NCBI GenBank assembly: GCA_965197745.1
Contig: CBDANS010000007.1
Location: forward strand, 1,664,001-1,728,000
From: Opitutales bacterium
GTDB taxonomy: Bacteria; Verrucomicrobiota; Verrucomicrobiia; Opitutales; PNEW01
Direction of reading: 5' to 3'
DNA: 64,000 nt
Under the pieces are notes generated by a model. It was not told where the DNA came from and did not search any database. It saw only the letters and a program-made list of their open reading frames with translations. Shown here piece by piece: positions 3,236 through 28,832 of the stretch (position 1 is the first letter of the stretch; each line of letters opens with the position of its first letter). The translations under genes and the position numbers were made by a program.

Positions 3236-4553
3236 TGGTCGTGACCACGAAAACTGGTCCACTTGAAAAGTTAGTCTGGTCCAACTAGAAAGGACACAGA
3301 CAATGAAAGGCAAAAGATACACGACCGAAGAGAAAATACGGATGCTGCGCCAGGCGGACAAAGGGAAAACGATCCTGGAAGCATGCCGCGAGAACAACAT
3401 AAGCGAACAGACCTTCCACCGCTGGAAACGTGAGTTTGGGATGATTGATGTCAACCAGGCCAAGCGGATGAAGGAGCTCTTTGAAGGAGAACGCGCGGTT
3501 AAAACGGATGCTGGCGGACAAGATGCTGGGGATAGAGATCCTGCAGGAGACCCTCGAAAAAAAACTGTAAGCCCTGGGCACAAGCGGCAAGTGGCAGAGA
3601 GACTTGTGACTCGGGGCCAGTGTTCGATGCGAGCGGGGTGCCGGTACTTTCGGCTGCACCGTTCCACCTATGCGTATAGGGCCAAGCATCCGGATGCCTG
3701 GCTAACGAAACTAAAAGCGGCAGTAAGGCGGTTATCACGGCAATACGCGAGGTGGGGCTATCCCAAGATCACGAAGCTGTTGAAGGACGAAGGCTGGCAG
3801 GTGGGTAAACGTCTCGTGCAACGTCTGCGACGTGAACTGGGTCTGGCGATCCCCCCACGCAAGCCAAGACGCCGGCGCAGGGATGTCTGCACCGGGCTAC
3901 CGACAAAGGCCGAACATCCCGACCATGTTTGGACCTGGGATTTTATCCACGATAAGACGGTTCGCGGCGGCAGTCTAAAAATGCTGACCGTGCTCGATGA
4001 GTACACCCGCGAGTGCCGGGTGATCCATGTTGATCGCCATATCAATGCGGAAACGGTGCGCGGTATCATGCAAAAACTGCTCGACCGGCATGGGCCGCCA
4101 AAATATATTCGTAGCGACAACGGTTCCGTTCCGAGGAGCGAAGCGACGACATGCAAAGCCATTCATTGAAAGCCAATTGAGAGCCTGGCTAACTGCGATG
4201 AAAATCAAAACCCTCTATATCGAACCAGCAAGCCCTTGGCAGAACGGATACATTGAATCGTTCCATGCCCGTTTTCGCGAGGAGTGTTTAAACCGTGAAC
4301 AGTTATGGACTTTGACCGAAGCCCGCGTGGTCATCGAAGATTGGCGCTGGCTTTACAATCATGTCCGACCCCACCGCAGCCTCGGCAACATCACTCCACG
4401 GCACTTCACTGAAAACCTCAATACCGAAGGCTCGGGCTCCATTCGGGCTACGCCCTCATTGCGCCCAAGCCTTGACTTCCTCTACCAACTTAACTTCAAC
4501 ATTAACCTCTCCAGACTAACTCTCCCGGTGGACCAGTTTGTGTAACCCGACCA
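3236..4553 (+). mobile_element. IS3-family element, lineage A (inactivated)
   Basis: Ends TGGTCGTGACCAC.. / ..GTAACCCGACCA; OrfA HTH, A8 slippery site, WTWDF, SDNG, NGYIESF; extra T in orfA; 32-nt insert in the SEF codon; no TSD. Confidence 0.95.
4129..4160 (+). repeat. Micro-element, site-2 (DNGS-E-F) type
   Basis: TCC G[ttccgaggagcgaagcgacgacatgcaaagcc]A TTC. Confidence 0.9.
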
Positions 4554-5948: not shown

Positions 5949-7083
5949 CTAATCGGAACTGATGTGTAGTTGGCGTGAGCTCCGAGGATAGGACCGTTGT
6001 CCGTGAGAGTCTTTCCGTAAATAAGAACGGAAAGACAAATGAAACAGAAGAGATGCACCACCGAGGAGATGCTCAACAATCGTGTATGGAGGAAGAGAAT
6101 AGAAATACCGAGTCGCATAACGACGACATCTTCCAATAGTAAGCTCGTGGCATAAGAAAGAAGCGGTAAAGCAAGTGGTAGCACAAGGGGGTTTCTCGCT
6201 GGATCGAGCGTGCTGGTATCTTCGAGCTGCATCGCTGAACTCATCTCTATGAGCACAGGCAGGAATCTTGTTATACTTAGCCCATGGTGAGCGGGTCATA
6301 AGACTTTCAAAGGCACATTTGCATTACGGTTATCGTCGTATTCATGCGCTGTTGAATAAAGAAAAGTGGAAGGCAAGGCGCAAAATCATGCAAAAAGGGT
6401 AAGAGCGTTGAAGGACTTGAGTGTTAAACCCTTTCGTCGCCTTCAGAGACGCCGAGGGCACTTTACTGGGCTTTCTACTAAAGCAGTAAGGCTGAACCAT
6501 GTATGGAGTTGAGATTTAGTTGCGAGCGCAATACATCCGCTCCGATTACGTTTACAAATCGGTATATGATATTACGGACAGTGTCAGATTCAAGAGCAGC
6601 TTGTACGTATGTTTCTTCCCTAGCAGAGTTTCGATTTGATCCAGCAGTGTCAATTAGATCAAGTCGCAGCACGTATCAAACGGTTTGTAGCACAAACAGT
6701 GAGAGAAGTACTCCTCAACAAGCGATAGCGAGAATAACAAATGTCCATGGTGCGTCTTTTTATCTTCCACTGCGTAACGTACCAAGGAGCGCAGTGACGA
6801 CATAGCAAAACACTCATGCTTAAATCAAGAATGGTTCCTAAGCGTTACCGAAGGGCGTGTTGTTATTGAAGCGTGGAAGCAAAACTAAAATGCCCAATAT
6901 CCTCATAGTCGTTTAGGCTTCCTCTCTGCCAATGCTTTTGCCAAACTCTGGCACCAACTCGATCCTACAAGTGCTGGCTCCACGAGCCCTACGGCCTATC
7001 TTCGCCAGCATCTCTTAAACCAATTATAGATAACCCATCGAATGGCTCTCACTCAACTTGGGTGTAATTATGAAGTCCAATCA
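5949..7083 (+). mobile_element. Degenerate IS3 element (lineage C-like) with internal foreign DNA
   Basis: MKQKRCTTEE orfA start, YGYRRI, CLNQEWF..V.E.RVVIE; right end ..aagtccaatca; left end approximate. Confidence 0.7.
6780..6815 (+). repeat. Micro-element, site-4 type (diverged); tail of a site-3 element at ~6708-6738
   Basis: G[taccaaggagcgcagtgacgacatagcaaaacactc]A TGC TTA AAT. Confidence 0.85.
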
Positions 7084-9217: not shown

Positions 9218-9543
9218 ATGTATTTGATGTTATACTCCTAATGCGGACTCGCATGTATTAGGTGTGAGATTGATCGGACTGGTTGGACCCCGTATTTCGT
9301 ACCAATTTTTAAGTGAGAGAACTACCGGGTGTTAATGGTATTAGGATTGATGTATATGAGAGATCTTGGCGCAGTGAGGGCGTAGCCCGAACGCGGCCAG
9401 GATCTGAAAGGAATCAGACAAACTCTTGTGGGCTTTGAAAGCCTAATCGACTGTGAGGATGTTCATTGTTATAGGTCTGACGCCATTGTTCGATTAGAAC
9501 TTGCGCTTCAGCCACGCTGAGCAACACTTCAGGGTTCAAACAT

Positions 9544-9579
9544 GAGCGCTTCGCTATGTCGTCACTACGTTCCTCGGTA
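9544..9579 (-). repeat. Micro-element, site-4 (RD-E-CLN), 36 nt
   Basis: GAT G[taccgaggaacgtagtgacgacatagcgaagcgctc]A TGT. Confidence 0.9.
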
Positions 9580-9620
9580 CATCGCGTAAGCGGTTGTGAA
9601 ACGACTCGATGAAACCGTTT

Positions 9621-9663
9621 GTTATTCTCGCTTTGGCTCGTTGAGGTGTCGCTTCGCTCGGTA
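9621..9663 (-). repeat. Micro-element, site-3 (PW-Q-NG), 43 nt
   Basis: TGG C[taccgagcgaagcgacacctcaacgagccaaagcgagaataac]A AAC. Confidence 0.9.
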
Positions 9664-9743
9664 GCCAGGGACTGCCTGGTTGGATATAGAGGGTTTTGAT
9701 TTTCATCGCTGTTAGCCAGGCTCTCAATTCCTTTTCAATGAAT

Positions 9744-9775
9744 GGCTTCGCATGTCGTCGCTTCGCTCCTCGGAA
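9744..9775 (-). repeat. Micro-element, site-2 (DNGS-E-F), 32 nt
   Basis: AGT G[ttccgaggagcgaagcgacgacatgcgaagcc]A TTC. Confidence 0.9.
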
Positions 9776-9903
9776 CACTGCCATTATCACTGTGGATATA
9801 GCTGGGAGCTCCCTCCTTTTCAATGGCCTCGCTAAGCACAGAGAGGACATCGGTTGAGGTGAGCTGTCGAGCTACCCGGATGCGTAAACATTTACGCGTA
9901 TAT

Positions 9904-9946
9904 GTCTTCGCTTCGCTTGAGTGTCGTCGCTTTCAGCTCCTCGGTA
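9904..9946 (-). repeat. Micro-element, site-1 (ID-E-YTR), 43 nt
   Basis: GAT G[taccgaggagctgaaagcgacgacactcaagcgaagcgaagac]A TAT. Confidence 0.9.
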
Positions 9947-11296
9947 CATCGATCAAGGTCATCATCTTTAGCATACCGCCATTGTCTGTACGATCATGGA
10001 CAAAGTCCCAGGACCAGACGTGATTGCGACCGGTTGCTTTAGTAGGGAGCCCAGTAGAGATCCCCTGACGGTGTCTACGCTTTTTCGGGGGCTTTACCTG
10101 TAAGCCCGAAGAACGTCGCACTGCCTGTACAAATTTCCTGCTTGCCGCCCAACCTTCCTTCACCAGCAGGGCACGAATGCGCCGGTAACCGTAACGGGGA
10201 TGTTCCCAGGACAAGGTCAAAATCCGCTCGGCCAATTGCTGAGCCTTCTTACTGGCCTGCTTGGGTCGGTAGCTGTACGTTGACCAACTGAGGCTGAGAT
10301 AAGCACAAGCCCTCCGAAACGAGCACAGCCCCTTCTCAGCCGCATCTTTTACTGCTCGCTTCTTCTGCTTTGGGCTCACCATTTTTTTGAGAGCGTTTCC
10401 TCCAACACCCGAAGCTTGAGCATTTGATCAGCGAGCATCTTCTTCAGCTCCGTGTTCTCCTTTTCCAGTTCTTTAAATCGCTTCGCATCAGCCAGCTCCA
10501 AGTTGCCATACTTTTTGCGCCAGCGATAGAAGGTCTGTTCACTTAGGTTGTTGCCGTGGCAGACTTCCTGCACGGTTTTGCCCGTATCGGGCTGCCGGAG
10601 TATTGCTATGATCTGTTCTGTTGTATATCTTTTTCTTTTCATTGAGGTTATCTGTTTATCCCGATAACCTCTCTCTGTTAATGATACCATTTTTTGGGGT
10701 CACTCCACAACCATTTCCCACCTTATTGACGTAGCCCATATGCGGGGCAAAGGGGGCCACGTCATGAGACGTGTAGGTCAACTCAAGAACGGACACTAGG
10801 ACAATCTCCCGAGCTCACTTCGAGCCGAAGCGGACAGCCGCGCAGAGTTTCGGCGACAAAACGTGGAGTTGCTCGACGATGAACCAGTTGAGGTGTTGGC
10901 CTTCTTAAGTCTTCCCACAAGGGATCACTGTGGAGGGAGCACCAGCACCCCTTTTGTGCGGCGCGCCGCCGCGCCGGGCGAGGAGGGGACACGCGAGCCG
11001 CAGCCTCGCTTCGATTTGTCGCAGCGGACGCGGGCAACTCCTTTTGTCCTGCGTCTTATGTGGCGTTTCGGCGAAGTCCCACACCACAACGGCGGGGGCT
11101 CTGCCCTCTGAGGGAAAAGCGTTGTGGTTGTCGAAATCATGTCCACCCCTCCCCGTCTGAAAGGGGACACCCATCTGACGGCATATGCGTGACCCCCGAA
11201 GACGGAAATCGTCGATCATTCCTGCCCCGGACAAGGCAGCCATGGCGTTCAACAGCGGTCCGGTGACTTCCGTTTTCCTACCCGCTGGGGGCACGT

Positions 11297-12726: not shown

Positions 12727-14087
12727 TGATTAGACCCCATAATTACTACCAAGTTAAGTGAGAGCCATTCCGTGGGTTATCTGTTGTTGGTTTAGCAGAT
12801 GCTGGCGGAGGGAGGCCGGAGGCCGAGTGGAGCCAGCACCTGTTGGATTGAGTTGCTGCCAGAGTTTGGCAAAAGCGTTGGAGAGAGAAAGCCTAAACGA
12901 CTATGAGGGTGATGGGTATTGTATTTTTGCTTCCCCGCATGGATGACAACACGCGCTTCGGTAACGCTTAGAAACCACTCTTGGTTTAAGCATGAGTGCT
13001 TCGCTATGTCGTCACTACGTTCCTCGGTACGTCACGCAGTCGATTGTGAAAGGATTCAACATGGCCGTTCTGCCAAGGACTGCCAGGGTCGATGTAGATA
13101 ATGTCGATCTGGCGCTTGAGGAGTGCTTCTCTGACTTTTTGTGCTACGAACTCCGAACCGTTATCGGAGCGGATGCATTGGGGTCTGCCATACTCTTCAA
13201 TAGCTTCGACTAAGACCTTGCACCACGTCTTCGCTTTTGAGCGAACGAGATACCTTTATGGCCAGGCATTGACGGGTATACTGATCGACACGGTGAGAAT
13301 GCGGAAAGGGCGGCCGTTGACCAGCCGATCGCTCATAAAGTCCATCGACCAGCGTTCCTGGGCAGCTGAAGCCGCGGGCAGTGAGACCCGCCTTTGCGCG
13401 GCACGCTTCTTACGTTTCTTCGTGCGCACTTCCAGCCCTTCGGCCTTGTAGATCCGATAGACGCGTTTCTTTCCTACCGACCAGCCCTCCCGCTTTAATA
13501 ACACCGTGATTCGCCTATACCCGTAGCGCACACGCGCGGCGGCGAGGTCTCGTATGCGCACAATCAGCGCGCGTTCGTCCCTCATCACCGGCTGATAGTT
13601 ATAACTCGACCAATACAACTGCATCAGCCTGTACGCCCGGCGTTTGCTAACTTCATAAGCTTCCACTAACCACTCAGCAATCACCTTCTTGCCCACTGGC
13701 TTTACAACTTTTTTGAGATAACTTCCTGCACCATGTGCTTGTCCAGGCTCAGATCAGCGACCAGCTTCTTCAAACTGGCGTTCTCTTCGTCGAGTTGCTT
13801 CAGCCGTCTTAATTCACTGATTCCCATGCCCGTGTATTTACCCTTCCAACGGTGGTAGGTCTGTTCGCTCACCCCTAACTCCCGGCACCCTTCGGCGATC
13901 CTTCGACCACCTTCTACCTGCCTTAGGGCATAGATGATTTGTTCTTTATTATAGCGTTTGTCAGGCCTTCTCGGCTGCGCCTCGTTTTCCTTTGCTTTTC
14001 ATGGATCGTTCTTTCTCCTATTTTTATTAGCTTTTCTACCCACGCCAGACTAAATCTTTCCTGGTCCAGTTTTACGGGGACAGGTCA
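12727..14087 (-). mobile_element. Chimeric IS3: lineage D 5' part fused to lineage C 3' part
   Basis: Ends TGACCTGTCCCC.. (14087) and ..GGGGTCTAATCA (12727); WSMDF, SDNGSEF, PWQNGHVESF; frameshifts. Confidence 0.85.
12994..13029 (-). repeat. Micro-element, site-4 type, in IS3 lineage C
   Basis: GAC G[taccgaggaacgtagtgacgacatagcgaagcactc]A TGC. Confidence 0.9.
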
Positions 14088-19032: not shown

Positions 19033-19366
19033 TTCATCGAGTCGTTTCACAACCGCTTACGCGATGTACCGAGGAACGTAGTGACGACATAGCGAAGCGC
19101 TCATGTTTGAACCCTGAAGTGTTGCTCAGCGTGGCTGAAGCGCAAGTTCTAATCGAACAATGGCGTCAGACCTATAACAATGAACATCCCCACCGTCGAT
19201 CAGGCTTTCAAAGCCCACAAGAGTTTGTCACATTCCTTTCAGATCTTGGCCGCGTTCGGGCTACGCCCTCACTTCGCCAAGATCTCTCATATACATCAAT
19301 CCTAAAACCATTAACACCCGGTAGCTCTCTCACTTAATAATTGGTACGAAAAACGGGGTCCAATCA
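19029..19366 (+). mobile_element. IS3 lineage B 3' half
   Basis: Begins at GFIESF; ends ..ggggtccaatca. Confidence 0.9.
19067..19102 (+). repeat. Micro-element, site-4
   Basis: Identical to 9544-9579 (reverse complement). Confidence 0.9.
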
Positions 19367-21262: not shown

Positions 21263-21419
21263 TTGTCATCGCGAAGGAAGCGTAGCTGACTGTGGCTACC
21301 GAGCGTGAAACGCGACATCTTCTATTCCAGGGGGCTGTCAATACGTGACCGACATCCTCCTGGAGTGGAAGATGTCGCTGAGCTCGGTAGCTTCGTCGCA
21401 TTGCTCCTCGCAATGACAA
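21263..21419. repeat. GTCAT(T/C)GCGAG-type REP-like palindrome with a micro-element in each arm (21297-21316 +, 21374-21389 -)
   Basis: ttgtcatcgcga... ...cctcgcaatgacaa long imperfect inverted repeat. Confidence 0.8.
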
Positions 21420-22259: not shown

Positions 22260-23687
22260 TGATCGGACCCCGTTATTCGTACCAATTATTAAGTGAGAGA
22301 GTTACCGGGTGTTAATGGTTTTAGGATTGATGTATATGAGAGATCCTGGCGCAGTGAGGGCGTAGCCCGAACGCGGCCAGGATCGGAAAGGAATCTGACA
22401 AACTCTTGTGGGCTTTTAAAGCCTAAACGACTGTGGGGATGTTCATTGTTATAGGTCTGACGCCATTGTTCGATTAGAACTTGCGCTTCAGCCACGCTGA
22501 GCAACACATCAGGGTTCAAACATGAGCGCTTCGCTATGTCGTCACTACGTTCCTCGGTACATCGCGTAAGCGGTTGTGAAACGACTCGATGAAACCGTTT
22601 GTTATTCTCGCTTTGGCTCGTTGAGGTGTCGCTTCGCTCGGTAGCCAGGGACTACCCGGATCGATATATATCGCCTTGATGTTTTTTTCACGCAACCACC
22701 GCTGTACTTGATGAGCGATAAATGGCTTCGCATGTCGTCGCTTTGCTCCTCGGAACACTGCCATTATCACTGCGGATATAGCTGGGAGCTCCCTCCTTTT
22801 CAATGGCCTCGCTAAGCACAGAGAGGACATCCGATGAGGTGAGTTGACGAGCTACCCGGATATCCAGACATTCACGCGTATATGGCTTCGCTTCGCTTGA
22901 GTGTCGTCGCTTTCAGCTCCTCGGTACATCGATCAGAGTCATCATCTTTAATGGACCGCCATTGTCTGTGCGATCATGGACAAAGTCCCAGGACCAAAGG
23001 TGATTGCGACCGGTTGCTTTAGGAGGCGACCCTGTAGAGACTCCTTGACGGTGTCTGCGCTTTTTTGGTGGCTTTACCTGTAAGCCCGAAGAACGTCGCA
23101 CTGCCTGTACAAATTTCCTGCTCGCCGCCCAGCCTTCCTTCACCAGCAAGGCACGGATGCGCCGGTAACCGTAGCGGGGATGTTCCCAGGACAGGGTTAC
23201 AATCCGCTCGGCCAACCGCTGAGCTTTCTTACTGGTCTGCCTGGGCCGGTAGCTGTACGTTGACCAACTGAGGCTGAGATAAGCACAAGCCCTCTAAAAC
23301 GAGCACAGCCCTCTCTCAGCCGCATCTTTTACTGCTCGCTTCTTCTGCTTGGGGCTCACCATTTTTTTGAGAGCGTTTCCTCCAACACCCGAAGCTTGAG
23401 CATTTGATCAGCGAGCATCTTCTTCAGCTCCGTATTCTCCTTTTCCAGCTCTTTAAATCGCTTCGCATCAGCCAGCTCCAAGGTGCCATACTTTTTGCCC
23501 CAGCGATAGAAGGTCTGTTCACTTAGGTTGTTGCCGCGGCAGACTTCCTGCACGGTTTTGCCCGTATCGGGCTGCCGGAGTATTGCTATGATCTGTTCTG
23601 TTGTATATCCTTTTCTTTTCATTGAGGTTATCGGGTTATCCCCATAACCTCTCTCTGTTAATGATACCATTTTTGGGGGTCACTCCA
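22260..23687 (-). mobile_element. IS3 lineage B copy 2 (1428 bp); micro-inserts at 22524-22559, 22601-22643, 22724-22755, 22884-22926
   Basis: Colinear with 9280-10707 at offset 12980; extra TAG in orfB; no TSD. Confidence 0.95.
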
Positions 23688-28399: not shown

Positions 28400-28832
28400 A
28401 GGAATCGGTCTTCCCCAAGCCATTACCGTCGATAATGGGCCCAAGTTTGTCGGCAAAGTACTGAATCAGTGAGCTTATGGCCACGGCATCGAGATGGATT
28501 TTATTCGCCCAGGCAAACCCGTAGAGAATGGTTATATTGAGAGCTTCAATGGACGCTTACGCGATGAACTTCTTAACACGGCGCTATTTTATACGCTGGC
28601 TGAAGCGAAAGAAAAACTTGAAGCTTGGCGACTTGATTATAATACTCAAGGATCACACAGCTCTCTGAGCTATCGGCCTCCAGCGCGAATACGCATAGAG
28701 AGCCGTGTATAATCAAATCAAAACTCTTACCACTCTGCCGGAATTAACACTGGCTCTGATACAGTAACCGGAAGCAGATCATATCCCGATAACCTCTCTC
28801 TTTAAATGATTCGATTTTTGGGGGTTACCCCC
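28400..28832 (+). mobile_element. IS3 3' fragment plus lineage-B left-end stub
   Basis: ITVDNGP.F...[26 protein letters not shown]; 28782-28832 matches the B left end. Confidence 0.8.

Follow-up and report, generated by a model that had tools for sequence, protein, structure and literature searches.

What are the four short inserts that interrupt the transposase gene of an insertion sequence (IS) of the IS3 family in an Opitutales bacterium, and how did inserts of the same kind come to lie in conserved codons of many related copies? The DNA analysed here, called the window below, is a stretch of 64,000 nucleotides (nt) from the assembly GCA_965197745.1 (contig CBDANS010000007.1, positions 1,664,001 to 1,728,000), and the inserts, which we call micro-elements (MEs), lie between positions 9544 and 9946, in the orfB gene of an IS3 element. 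The original prediction had offered two readings: a programmed, homing-like inactivation of the DDE core of the transposase, in the sense of IS silencing or hyperparasitism, or removable micro-introns or bypass elements that regulate transposase expression. Our analysis indicates that the inserts are probably tiny mobile hairpin elements that inactivate IS3 and have been spread by defective IS copies and by recombination.

The IS3 element and its four inserts

The host element, a mosaic member of what we call lineage A, extends from about 9280 to about 10707 on the minus strand (both ends are approximate) and is bounded by an inverted repeat beginning TGGAGTGACCCC. Its orfA (10376..10690, minus strand; 104 aa in the list of open reading frames, ORFs) overlaps orfB at AAAAAAATGGTGA, and the motifs DNGSEF and PWQNG..ES, of the DDE type found in the IS3 family, are readable in orfB; the element belongs to the IS3 family on these grounds. 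The first segment of orfB (9947..10382, minus strand), delimited by the ORF list and by comparison of copies, runs for 145 codons to the residues LID and stops at the first insert. This segment is 99-100% identical to that of 15 other copies.

All four inserts were found on the minus strand with the lengths, stop codons and frames originally described. The ME at site 1 (S1; 9904-9946, 43 nt) follows ATC GAT G in the motif ID-E-YTR, brings an in-frame TGA and adds a net 42 nt. At site 2 (S2; 9744-9775), an ME of 32 nt follows GGC AGT G in DNGS-E-F, and its net gain of 31 nt shifts the frame. The ME at site 3 (S3; 9621-9663, 43 nt) follows CCC TGG C in PW-Q-NG and adds a net 42 nt, in frame and with no stop, while that at site 4 (S4; 9544-9579, 36 nt) follows CGC GAT G in RD-E-CLN and adds a TAG and a frameshift (net 35 nt). 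In an alignment of ten lineage-A copies, some of them empty at each site, GAA/GAG or CAA corresponds to G-ME-A or C-ME-A in the filled copies, which puts each ME directly behind base 1 of a conserved Glu or Gln codon. In the alignment the base after every filled site is an A, as had been claimed, and one codon base is missing or is read as the last C of the insert. Three boxes, CCGAGGAGC, GCGACGACA and GCGAAGC, are common to all four inserts. Neither a TA nor any other target duplication is visible at the inserts. Derivation as a MITE (a miniature transposable element with inverted repeats) from the terminal repeats of the host IS was rejected, the IS ends (TGGAGTGACCCC) being unlike the ME ends.

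A family of hairpin elements with a defined insertion motif

A strict pattern of the three boxes gave 101 matches in the 4.45-Mb genome and none in a reversed control, which argues that the MEs are not chance matches; 8 copies of the S3 type lie beyond these 101. MEs are 23-45 nt long and share one plan, T(A/T)CCGAG followed by a small hairpin and GAC(A/G), often with a GCGAAGC mini-hairpin and a CCA tail. Their forward strand starts with (G/C)TAC or (G/C)TTC, the first base coming from the target, and on their reverse strand the hairpin is immediately preceded, on its 5' side, by TGTC or CGTC. NCCA is the end of most long variants; those of S1, S3 and S4 end in ACA or TCA, and the final A may be that of the target.

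The hairpin of the long MEs is revealed by compensating changes. Among 33 distinct long variants, base 4 of GGAGC and base 2 of GCGAC vary jointly, being G-C in 24, A-T in 7, A.C in 1 and G.T in 1 (manual count), that is, a G-C or A-T pair in 31 of the 33. The covarying pair closes a loop of 3-5 nt of the GC-GNA-GC kind, and the invariant GCGAAGC comes next. Mini-hairpins of the GNA type are unusually stable. A sub-family of short MEs (23-35 nt) consists of TACCGAG, a variable hairpin and GACATCTTCC; it has 83 candidates in this genome, some of them due to chance. The stem sequences of the short MEs are very diverse, and for 21 of 49 distinct middles the stem is reached by at most 5% of their own shuffles.

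The insertion motif is S^A(A/T)TYC, or S^AAT in brief, with one A usually lost or reading as C. In 81 distinct contexts, position -1 is G in 44 and C in 28; position +1, which is partly preset by the search pattern, is A in 76; position +2 is T in 48 and A in 24; position +3 is T in 46; and positions +4 and +5 are C in 39 each. The ME family is made up of small non-coding hairpin elements that resemble repetitive extragenic palindromes (REPs) and the repeats related to Ssn nucleases. The Ssn proteins are single-stranded-DNA nucleases that occur with NTS/SRM repeats, the NTS flanks reading CGTCATT...AATCYRG in the published account (Chenal et al. 2025, PMC11893778).

Hosts other than IS3

A scan of one genome per species revealed at least 37 ME loci in other genomes. 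Among the matches listed, MEs occur in Pelagicoccus, Cerasicoccus, Lentimonas, Ruficoccus, Puniceicoccaceae, Opitutaceae and other metagenome-assembled genomes (MAGs) of Verrucomicrobiota, and also in one Lentisphaerae MAG and two Woeseiaceae MAGs; two further listed matches, from GC-rich MAGs of Actinomycetes and Thermoanaerobaculia, seem to be due to chance. In the sample of the order, 12 of 301 genomes match, and a heavy load is found only in one family (f1; 101, 65 and 16 copies).

Among the matches listed, non-IS3 coding hosts include an IS481-like gene, at its DNGP-E-F site, and an IS5-type gene, at its ET-E-F site, and hairpin loops also carry MEs. The commonest context outside IS3 among these matches is a duplicated piece of a tRNA gene beside the intact gene, with the ME in the T-loop (GGTTCG^AATCC) or the D-loop (GGTCG^AATG). 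In this genome there are three T-loop MEs, in duplicated copies beside tRNA-Asn and tRNA-Gln; in other Opitutales, T- and D-loop copies beside tRNA-Ser carry them. Of the short-ME candidates, 39 of 83 lie within repeat ends of the form TTGTCATTGCGAGG-hairpin-GACGCGGC-AATCCAGG, of which there are about 100, and always at GC^AATCC. One such short ME lies in the window (21367..21389, minus strand, 23 nt, TACCGAG-hairpin-GACATCTTCC), in an Ssn-type repeat end whose TGTCATTGCGAGG is at 21406-21418. Some of the remaining short MEs sit in tandem heptamers (CAATCGx, AACCCTG) and in another repeat, and duplicated tRNA T-loops are a further place where short relatives are found. Placing short MEs by means of empty sites in relatives failed, intergenic DNA being too diverged between genera.

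Because the same family enters tRNA loops, IS5 and IS481 genes, heptamer arrays and Ssn-type repeats at S^AAT, MEs are not specific to IS3, and the programmed targeting of the DDE core that had been proposed is unsupported. The motif is common to MEs and to tRNA T-loops, a classic integrase target, which suggests one structural cue for several kinds of mobile DNA.

Some of these loci have a unit structure. In the related genome G002 (C1:398.5-400.4k, loci L052/L054), tRNA-Asn is followed by a tandem pair of units, about 400 nt each, and both contain a 93-aa GIY-YIG ORF and a pseudo-tRNA-Asn whose anticodon stem includes a palindrome and whose T-loop carries an ME. At this locus G001 has a single short unit and G003 has no unit. 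After tRNA-Ser, units of about 110 nt occur at L015 (a Puniceicoccaceae MAG), L020, L047 and L024, in tandem at L015; in each, the 3' end of the tRNA is copied and accompanied by an inverted T-arm (GGATTCGAACC or similar) and an ME in the T-loop, an architecture kept across genera. Since one arm of the tRNA-linked units complements the T-arm, the ME would protrude as a bulge from a hairpin. A further ME unit, after tRNA-Asn on contig C6 of this genome (L011, 1518-1611), matches the Rfam family RtT RNA with 23.7 bits against a gathering threshold of 45 (E 0.3); RtT is another repeat with copies of tRNA 3' ends, and the hit is probably not meaningful. Short MEs in heptamer arrays were seen in this genome at C6:562586, C6:1235011, C7:620614 and C5:499995, among others.

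Distribution among IS3 copies and recombination

The genome holds about 97 IS3 orfB loci, and 64 of the 76 with a complete first orfB segment contain at least one ME. Of the 76, 32 are filled at S2 only, 26 at S1 and S2, 3 at all four sites and 3 in other combinations; the other 12 have none, although 2 of them hold a decayed S4. Register could be maintained in 96 loci, which have MEs at S1 in 33 cases, at S2 in 69, at S3 in 8 and at S4 in 8. The conserved codons of IS3 happen to spell the insertion motif at these places: GAT GAA TAT, AGT GAA TTC, TGG CAA AAC and GAT GAA TGT.

It had been suggested that empty sites have GAG/CAG or GAA-C codons. The examples quoted from the window do have them (GAG at 3999, CAG at 4240, GAG at 4282, GAG at about 13148 and GAA-C at 28566), but the rule is limited to the window, because among the 96 loci 11 empty sites at S1, 2 at S2 and 26 at S3 have GAA-T or CAA-A. 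The same codon counts led us to reject an escape of intact copies through resistant GAG/CAG codons.

That the same variant occurs in divergent IS lineages was borne out. The 30-nt core of the S2 ME is found exactly in 52 places, in lineages A and B alike, while synonymous sites between A and B are saturated (proportion of synonymous differences, pS, about 0.8). The S4 ME recurs at 12994..13029 (minus strand) in an IS3 lineage with 36% protein identity in the first orfB segment. In the window, a copy of lineage B' carries the GCAAAGCC variant of the S2 ME at 4129..4160 (plus strand), with its sites 1, 3 and 4 empty (GAG, CAG, GAG). The variants are site-specific, so the simplest start is one origin for each site; hits at a site would have been rare, probably one per variant.

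Recombination among the copies is seen directly. At least 8 of the 16 possible combinations of S1-S4 occur in lineage A, in the B' lineage the ME and a distant indel occur in every one of the four possible combinations (a four-gamete pattern), and mosaic copies show that recombination is frequent. The window copy, although of lineage A, contains a B-like patch (9680..9743, minus strand; 62 nt with 1 mismatch to B, compared by eye) that begins at the S2 ME and, judged by its sequence, looks like a gene-conversion tract. Short-tract conversion is enough to explain the spread, given the patch, the B' indel and the combinations in lineage A. In contrast, old neutral vertical inheritance is disfavoured, because the variants are nearly unchanged despite saturation, the frames are otherwise open and the ratio of nonsynonymous to synonymous substitution (dN/dS) is 0.1-0.3.

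Codon 22 of orfB offers a separate observation. An in-frame TAG at this codon is common to several sub-lineages of lineage A (e.g. at C7:2049800 of this genome), and the window copy has CGG at the equivalent place, near 10315, so that two bases differ in a first orfB segment that is identical elsewhere. The site has the look of a further small conversion patch.

The pattern of spread might also be read as homing-like silencing, in which a nuclease cuts the empty IS3 motif and repair copies a cut-resistant ME allele from another IS copy. Several findings are in its favour: the same variant occupies the same site across saturated lineages, with S2 identical in A and B; the S1 ME in lineages of 37-53% identity has about 5-7 of its 43 positions changed relative to the main variant; the sole differences between filled and empty B' copies are the insert and the codon after it, which resembles a co-conversion tract no longer than about 56 nt; and small GIY-YIG nuclease genes are present in the genome. 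In addition, the tree of the first orfB segment requires at least 3, 6, 4 and 4 changes of state at S1 to S4. The tree check that had been proposed for repeated targeting therefore has a divided outcome: these numbers speak for repeated changes, but the mosaic copies speak for frequent recombination. Ordinary recombination among about 100 IS copies gives the same pattern as homing, and susceptible-looking empty sites remain, with GAA-T at the 11 S1 sites and CAA-A at the 26 S3 sites. No nuclease gene is linked to IS3, and the Ssn enzymes, as far as they are described in PMC11893778, cut only single-stranded DNA near their own hairpin. We consider this account unlikely; homing-like spread as such may have occurred.

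The same distribution bears on the idea that the inserts were present in the common ancestor of the IS3 copies and have been kept by selection, for example for truncated inhibitor proteins. An insert conserved across very divergent lineages would agree with it, as would the 288-aa N-terminal product encoded by the S2-bearing B copies. However, ME-free copies fall inside lineages A and B' and hardly differ from their filled counterparts, the four sites are filled or empty in free combination, and all three rows of lineage C are empty at all sites (state 0000). This is the least probable of the explanations considered here.

Effect on the transposase genes

The MEs appear to be inactivating insertions in orfB. 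We read them in this way because they bring stops and frameshifts, their removal leaves codons short of bases, ME-free copies are open, S1 is kept in an RNA-library contig and no Rfam family was recognised. One comparison comes from lineage B', in which 4 copies have an intact ORF of 403 aa and are identical over about 1 kb to 9 filled copies save at the insert, where GAG TTT stands against G-ME-A TTC. In addition, the relative G002 has a lineage-A copy that is free of all four MEs and has 307 open codons. Of the first reading in the original prediction, the inactivation and hyperparasitism part is thus upheld by the stops, the frameshifts and the open ME-free copies, whereas the programmed targeting finds no support, given the other hosts and the susceptible-looking sites that stay empty. 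With at least one ME in 64 of 76 full-length IS3 loci, this would be a natural route to the bulk disabling of insertion sequences.

The reading as micro-introns or bypass elements found no support. A search of 9300-10800 of the window gave no Rfam match at E up to 1, and a direct reading of the codons found no matching take-off and landing codons around the MEs. Exact removal of the ME leaves G+A, a codon one base short, at every site. Removal of the GU..AG type was tried and discarded: it would mend the reading frame at S1, S2 and S4 but fail to do so at S3, and nothing else speaks for it. The RNA evidence consists of Logan contigs of RNA libraries from four runs, the parts of run X16 lacking cover being ignored. 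One contig (run X15, record 13) spans S1 and retains the insert, and no joint skipping exactly S1 or S2 occurs in the contigs of any of the four runs. Forms empty at S4 and at S2/S3 do occur in runs X15 and X16; because the same empty alleles exist in DNA, all of these joined forms are uninformative on splicing. The spliced-junction check that had been proposed thus yielded no joined form beyond known DNA alleles.

How the elements may move and spread

In the explanation that we favour, MEs would insert in one orientation at S^A(A/T)TYC, usually with loss, or a C reading, of one A, and the insert would disrupt orfB and disable the transposase. The disabled copies would then multiply as non-autonomous IS copies, presumably mobilised by intact relatives, those of lineage A being moved in trans by a helper that may now be lost or unassembled. 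The inserts would cross between IS lineages at the homologous site through short-tract recombination seeded in the common insert and motif. The MEs themselves may move as single-stranded hairpin DNA by means of an enzyme acting in trans, for which an Ssn-type GIY-YIG nuclease and a RAYT-like Y1 protein are the candidates.

We found 7 small ORFs with GIY-YIG matches in this genome, two of them with internal stops. Four GIY-YIG ORFs of 78-97 aa match PF01541, one with an overlapping T5orf172 match and otherwise single-domain, and the nearest solved chain to the protein is 1zg2_A (UPF0213, E 1.5e-5). Inverted ends of the form TGTCATTGCGAGG...AATCCAGG flank the gene at C7:483.5k, 1541.9k, 1545.5k and C6:787.8k. 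Four of the TGTCATTGCGAGG-bounded elements enclose an ORF of the 97-aa type, one with TAA and one broken by two stops; the other small GIY-YIG ORFs sit in or beside tRNA genes. Boxes of the form CGAGGAGC-NNN-GCGACG, nearly the module of ME boxes 1-2, recur inside the repeat ends that flank the 97-aa genes.

At one tRNA-linked locus (L058, C7:1845700-1847100 of this genome), the intact tRNA-Met gene is accompanied by a second copy of its 5' part, which breaks off in the anticodon loop, where the hairpin TCCCGCAACTGCGGGA caps it; a 78-aa GIY-YIG ORF lies between the two, and a second, decayed GIY-YIG ORF adjoins. From its arrangement, the locus looks like a small nuclease element that targets and restores a tRNA gene.

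Several points weigh against the explanation given above. First, mobilisation in trans is assumed rather than shown, because the assembly (92% complete) holds no intact lineage-A gene and yet contains 15 identical A1 copies and 10 A2 copies, all filled at S1 and S2, the A1 copies also with TAG at orfB codon 22. Second, counting each ME as a single base leaves orfB otherwise open, for 272 codons in the window copy, and dN/dS values of 0.1-0.3 downstream of shared inserts also fit working genes. Third, ViennaRNA gave no significant fold for IS3-type MEs (z -1.5 to +1.5), so that the case for a hairpin in the long MEs rests on covariation and on the mini-hairpins of the GNA type. Fourth, the explanation does not account for the loss of 1 nt at the 3' junction, and no enzyme is tied to the MEs. 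The RAYT-like ORF (C6:163146-163742 of this genome) scores 66.6 bits, under the curated cut-off of 80, and its 3.3-kb locus holds no ME motif and does not have the REPtron arrangement. A GIY-YIG gene adjoins a long ME at one locus only, tRNA-Asn in G002; none lies within 400 nt of the 37 ME loci in other genomes among the matches listed; and the genome G035 has 5 MEs but only a GIY-YIG gene of the UvrC type.

Some of these points would be expected if the MEs were removable, being taken out of the mRNA, skipped by the ribosome or excised from the DNA in some cells, with transposase still made in a regulated manner. The abundance of A1 and A2 copies beside no intact lineage-A gene and the otherwise open orfB would agree with this, as would dN/dS values of 0.13-0.19 downstream of S1 and S2 between the ME-bearing A1 and A2 copies; moreover, the ME sequence is far better conserved than the flanking synonymous sites. 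Bypass elements, such as those of T4 gene 60 and the mitochondrial 'byps', and small introns are known inserts of 27-55 nt with stops in coding sequence that is intact otherwise. MEs are like them in being short inserts of this kind, but differ in the codon, ribozyme-family, folding and RNA-contig results reported above. In addition, the A1 copies would still have the in-frame TAG at codon 22, and the same MEs lie in non-coding repeats and tRNA fragments, where splicing is meaningless. Removability as such is highly improbable.

A related reading holds that the ME-bearing genes are still functional, their MEs being removed or bypassed in RNA, or transiently excised from single-stranded DNA by an Ssn-type nuclease so as to switch IS3. 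If true, it would explain both the 25 near-identical two-ME copies of lineage A that have no intact gene beside them and the frames that stay open at dN/dS 0.1-0.2. It is kept alive mainly by the abundance of the A1 and A2 copies without an intact helper; we hold it to be quite improbable.

Comparison with known repeats

The MEs were compared with known miniature repeats. REPs, which consist of a tag, a stem-loop and a CCA tail, include the GTAG and CGTC superfamilies and the RPEs of Rickettsia, and TGTC variants of the tag are allowed, according to Di Nocera et al. 2013 (PMC3733652). Intragenic REPs are described there as most frequent in Opitutus terrae, an Opitutales species, and the CGTC type as having no known enzyme. 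MEs are like the REPs of that account in their length of 20-40 nt, high copy number, short tag, compensating stem-loop and frequent CCA tail; both can lie inside genes (PMC3733652). On the identity of the tag the comparison is mixed: the ME reverse strand has [C/T]GTC directly 5' of the hairpin, and the forward tag of the MEs is GTAC or GTTC, not GTAG. In contrast to REPs, the ME stems are very short with G.A pairs, MEs have the defined motif S^AAT, and the RAYT-like gene has no flanking MEs. MEs also break genes by stops and frameshifts, while intragenic REPs are described as tolerated in frame (PMC3733652).

The likeness to Ssn in gene and flanks concerns the repeats that host MEs, not the MEs themselves: single-domain GIY-YIG genes, with predicted nuclease activity and in the size range of Ssn proteins, which have about 94 aa, lie between inverted hairpin repeats TGTCATTGCGAGG...GCAATCCAGG, and the repeat flanks TGTCATT...AATCCAG agree with the NTS flanks CGTCATT...AATCYRG as given in PMC11893778. 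About half of the SRM-like ends here host a short ME at GC^AATCC. Unlike SRM, the MEs have no outer ATT...AAT stem, and mobility, an insertion motif or gene insertion are not among the properties of SRM reported in Chenal et al. (PMC11893778), whose authors describe the biological role of Ssn nucleases outside Neisseria as open.

We regard the ME family as REP/SRM-like miniature elements, the new part being their amplification within IS3 transposase genes. No published account of REP-like elements hitting transposase genes was found, although one may exist in journals not covered. The small dispersed repeats (SDRs) of the cyanobacterium Nostoc are reportedly 21-27 nt long and share a hairpin with compensatory changes; they are said to occur in tandem heptamers and mini-transposons, to be able to nest, and to have been proposed as the smallest mobile elements. 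MEs would be like them in being present in heptamer arrays and MITE-like repeat ends, and unlike them in belonging to another phylum, in sequences that reportedly are unrelated, in the S^AAT target and in amplification within IS3 transposase genes. If our explanation is true, MEs rank with the smallest mobile elements for which an insertion motif can be defined, and they connect REP-type hairpin repeats with Ssn single-strand nucleases.

Other micro-elements and neighbouring elements

The window contains a second lineage-A copy with four MEs (22524..22926, minus strand), at 22524-22559 (S4), 22601-22643 (S3), 22724-22755 (S2) and 22884-22926 (S1). A sequence match revealed an S4 ME in an IS3 3' fragment at 19067..19102 (plus strand), and the search for short MEs found one of 29 nt adjoining an IS3 fragment at 6106..6134 (plus strand).

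Integrase genes occur near several IS3 copies. At C4:135311-138137 and three other loci of this genome, each intact B' copy lies within about 0.4-4 kb of a tyrosine-integrase gene; given this adjacency, the B' copies may owe their multiplication to an island that carried them as passengers rather than to transposition of their own. At C7:1066385, outside the window, the insertion point of an island with an integrase gene is precisely CATCGAATCG (codons I-E-S) of an IS3 copy; this sequence resembles a T-loop and lies about 20 nt past site 3. The junction between the island and IS3 at CATCGAATCG has no ME, and the idea that MEs are an arm of an integrase attachment (att) site was accordingly dropped.

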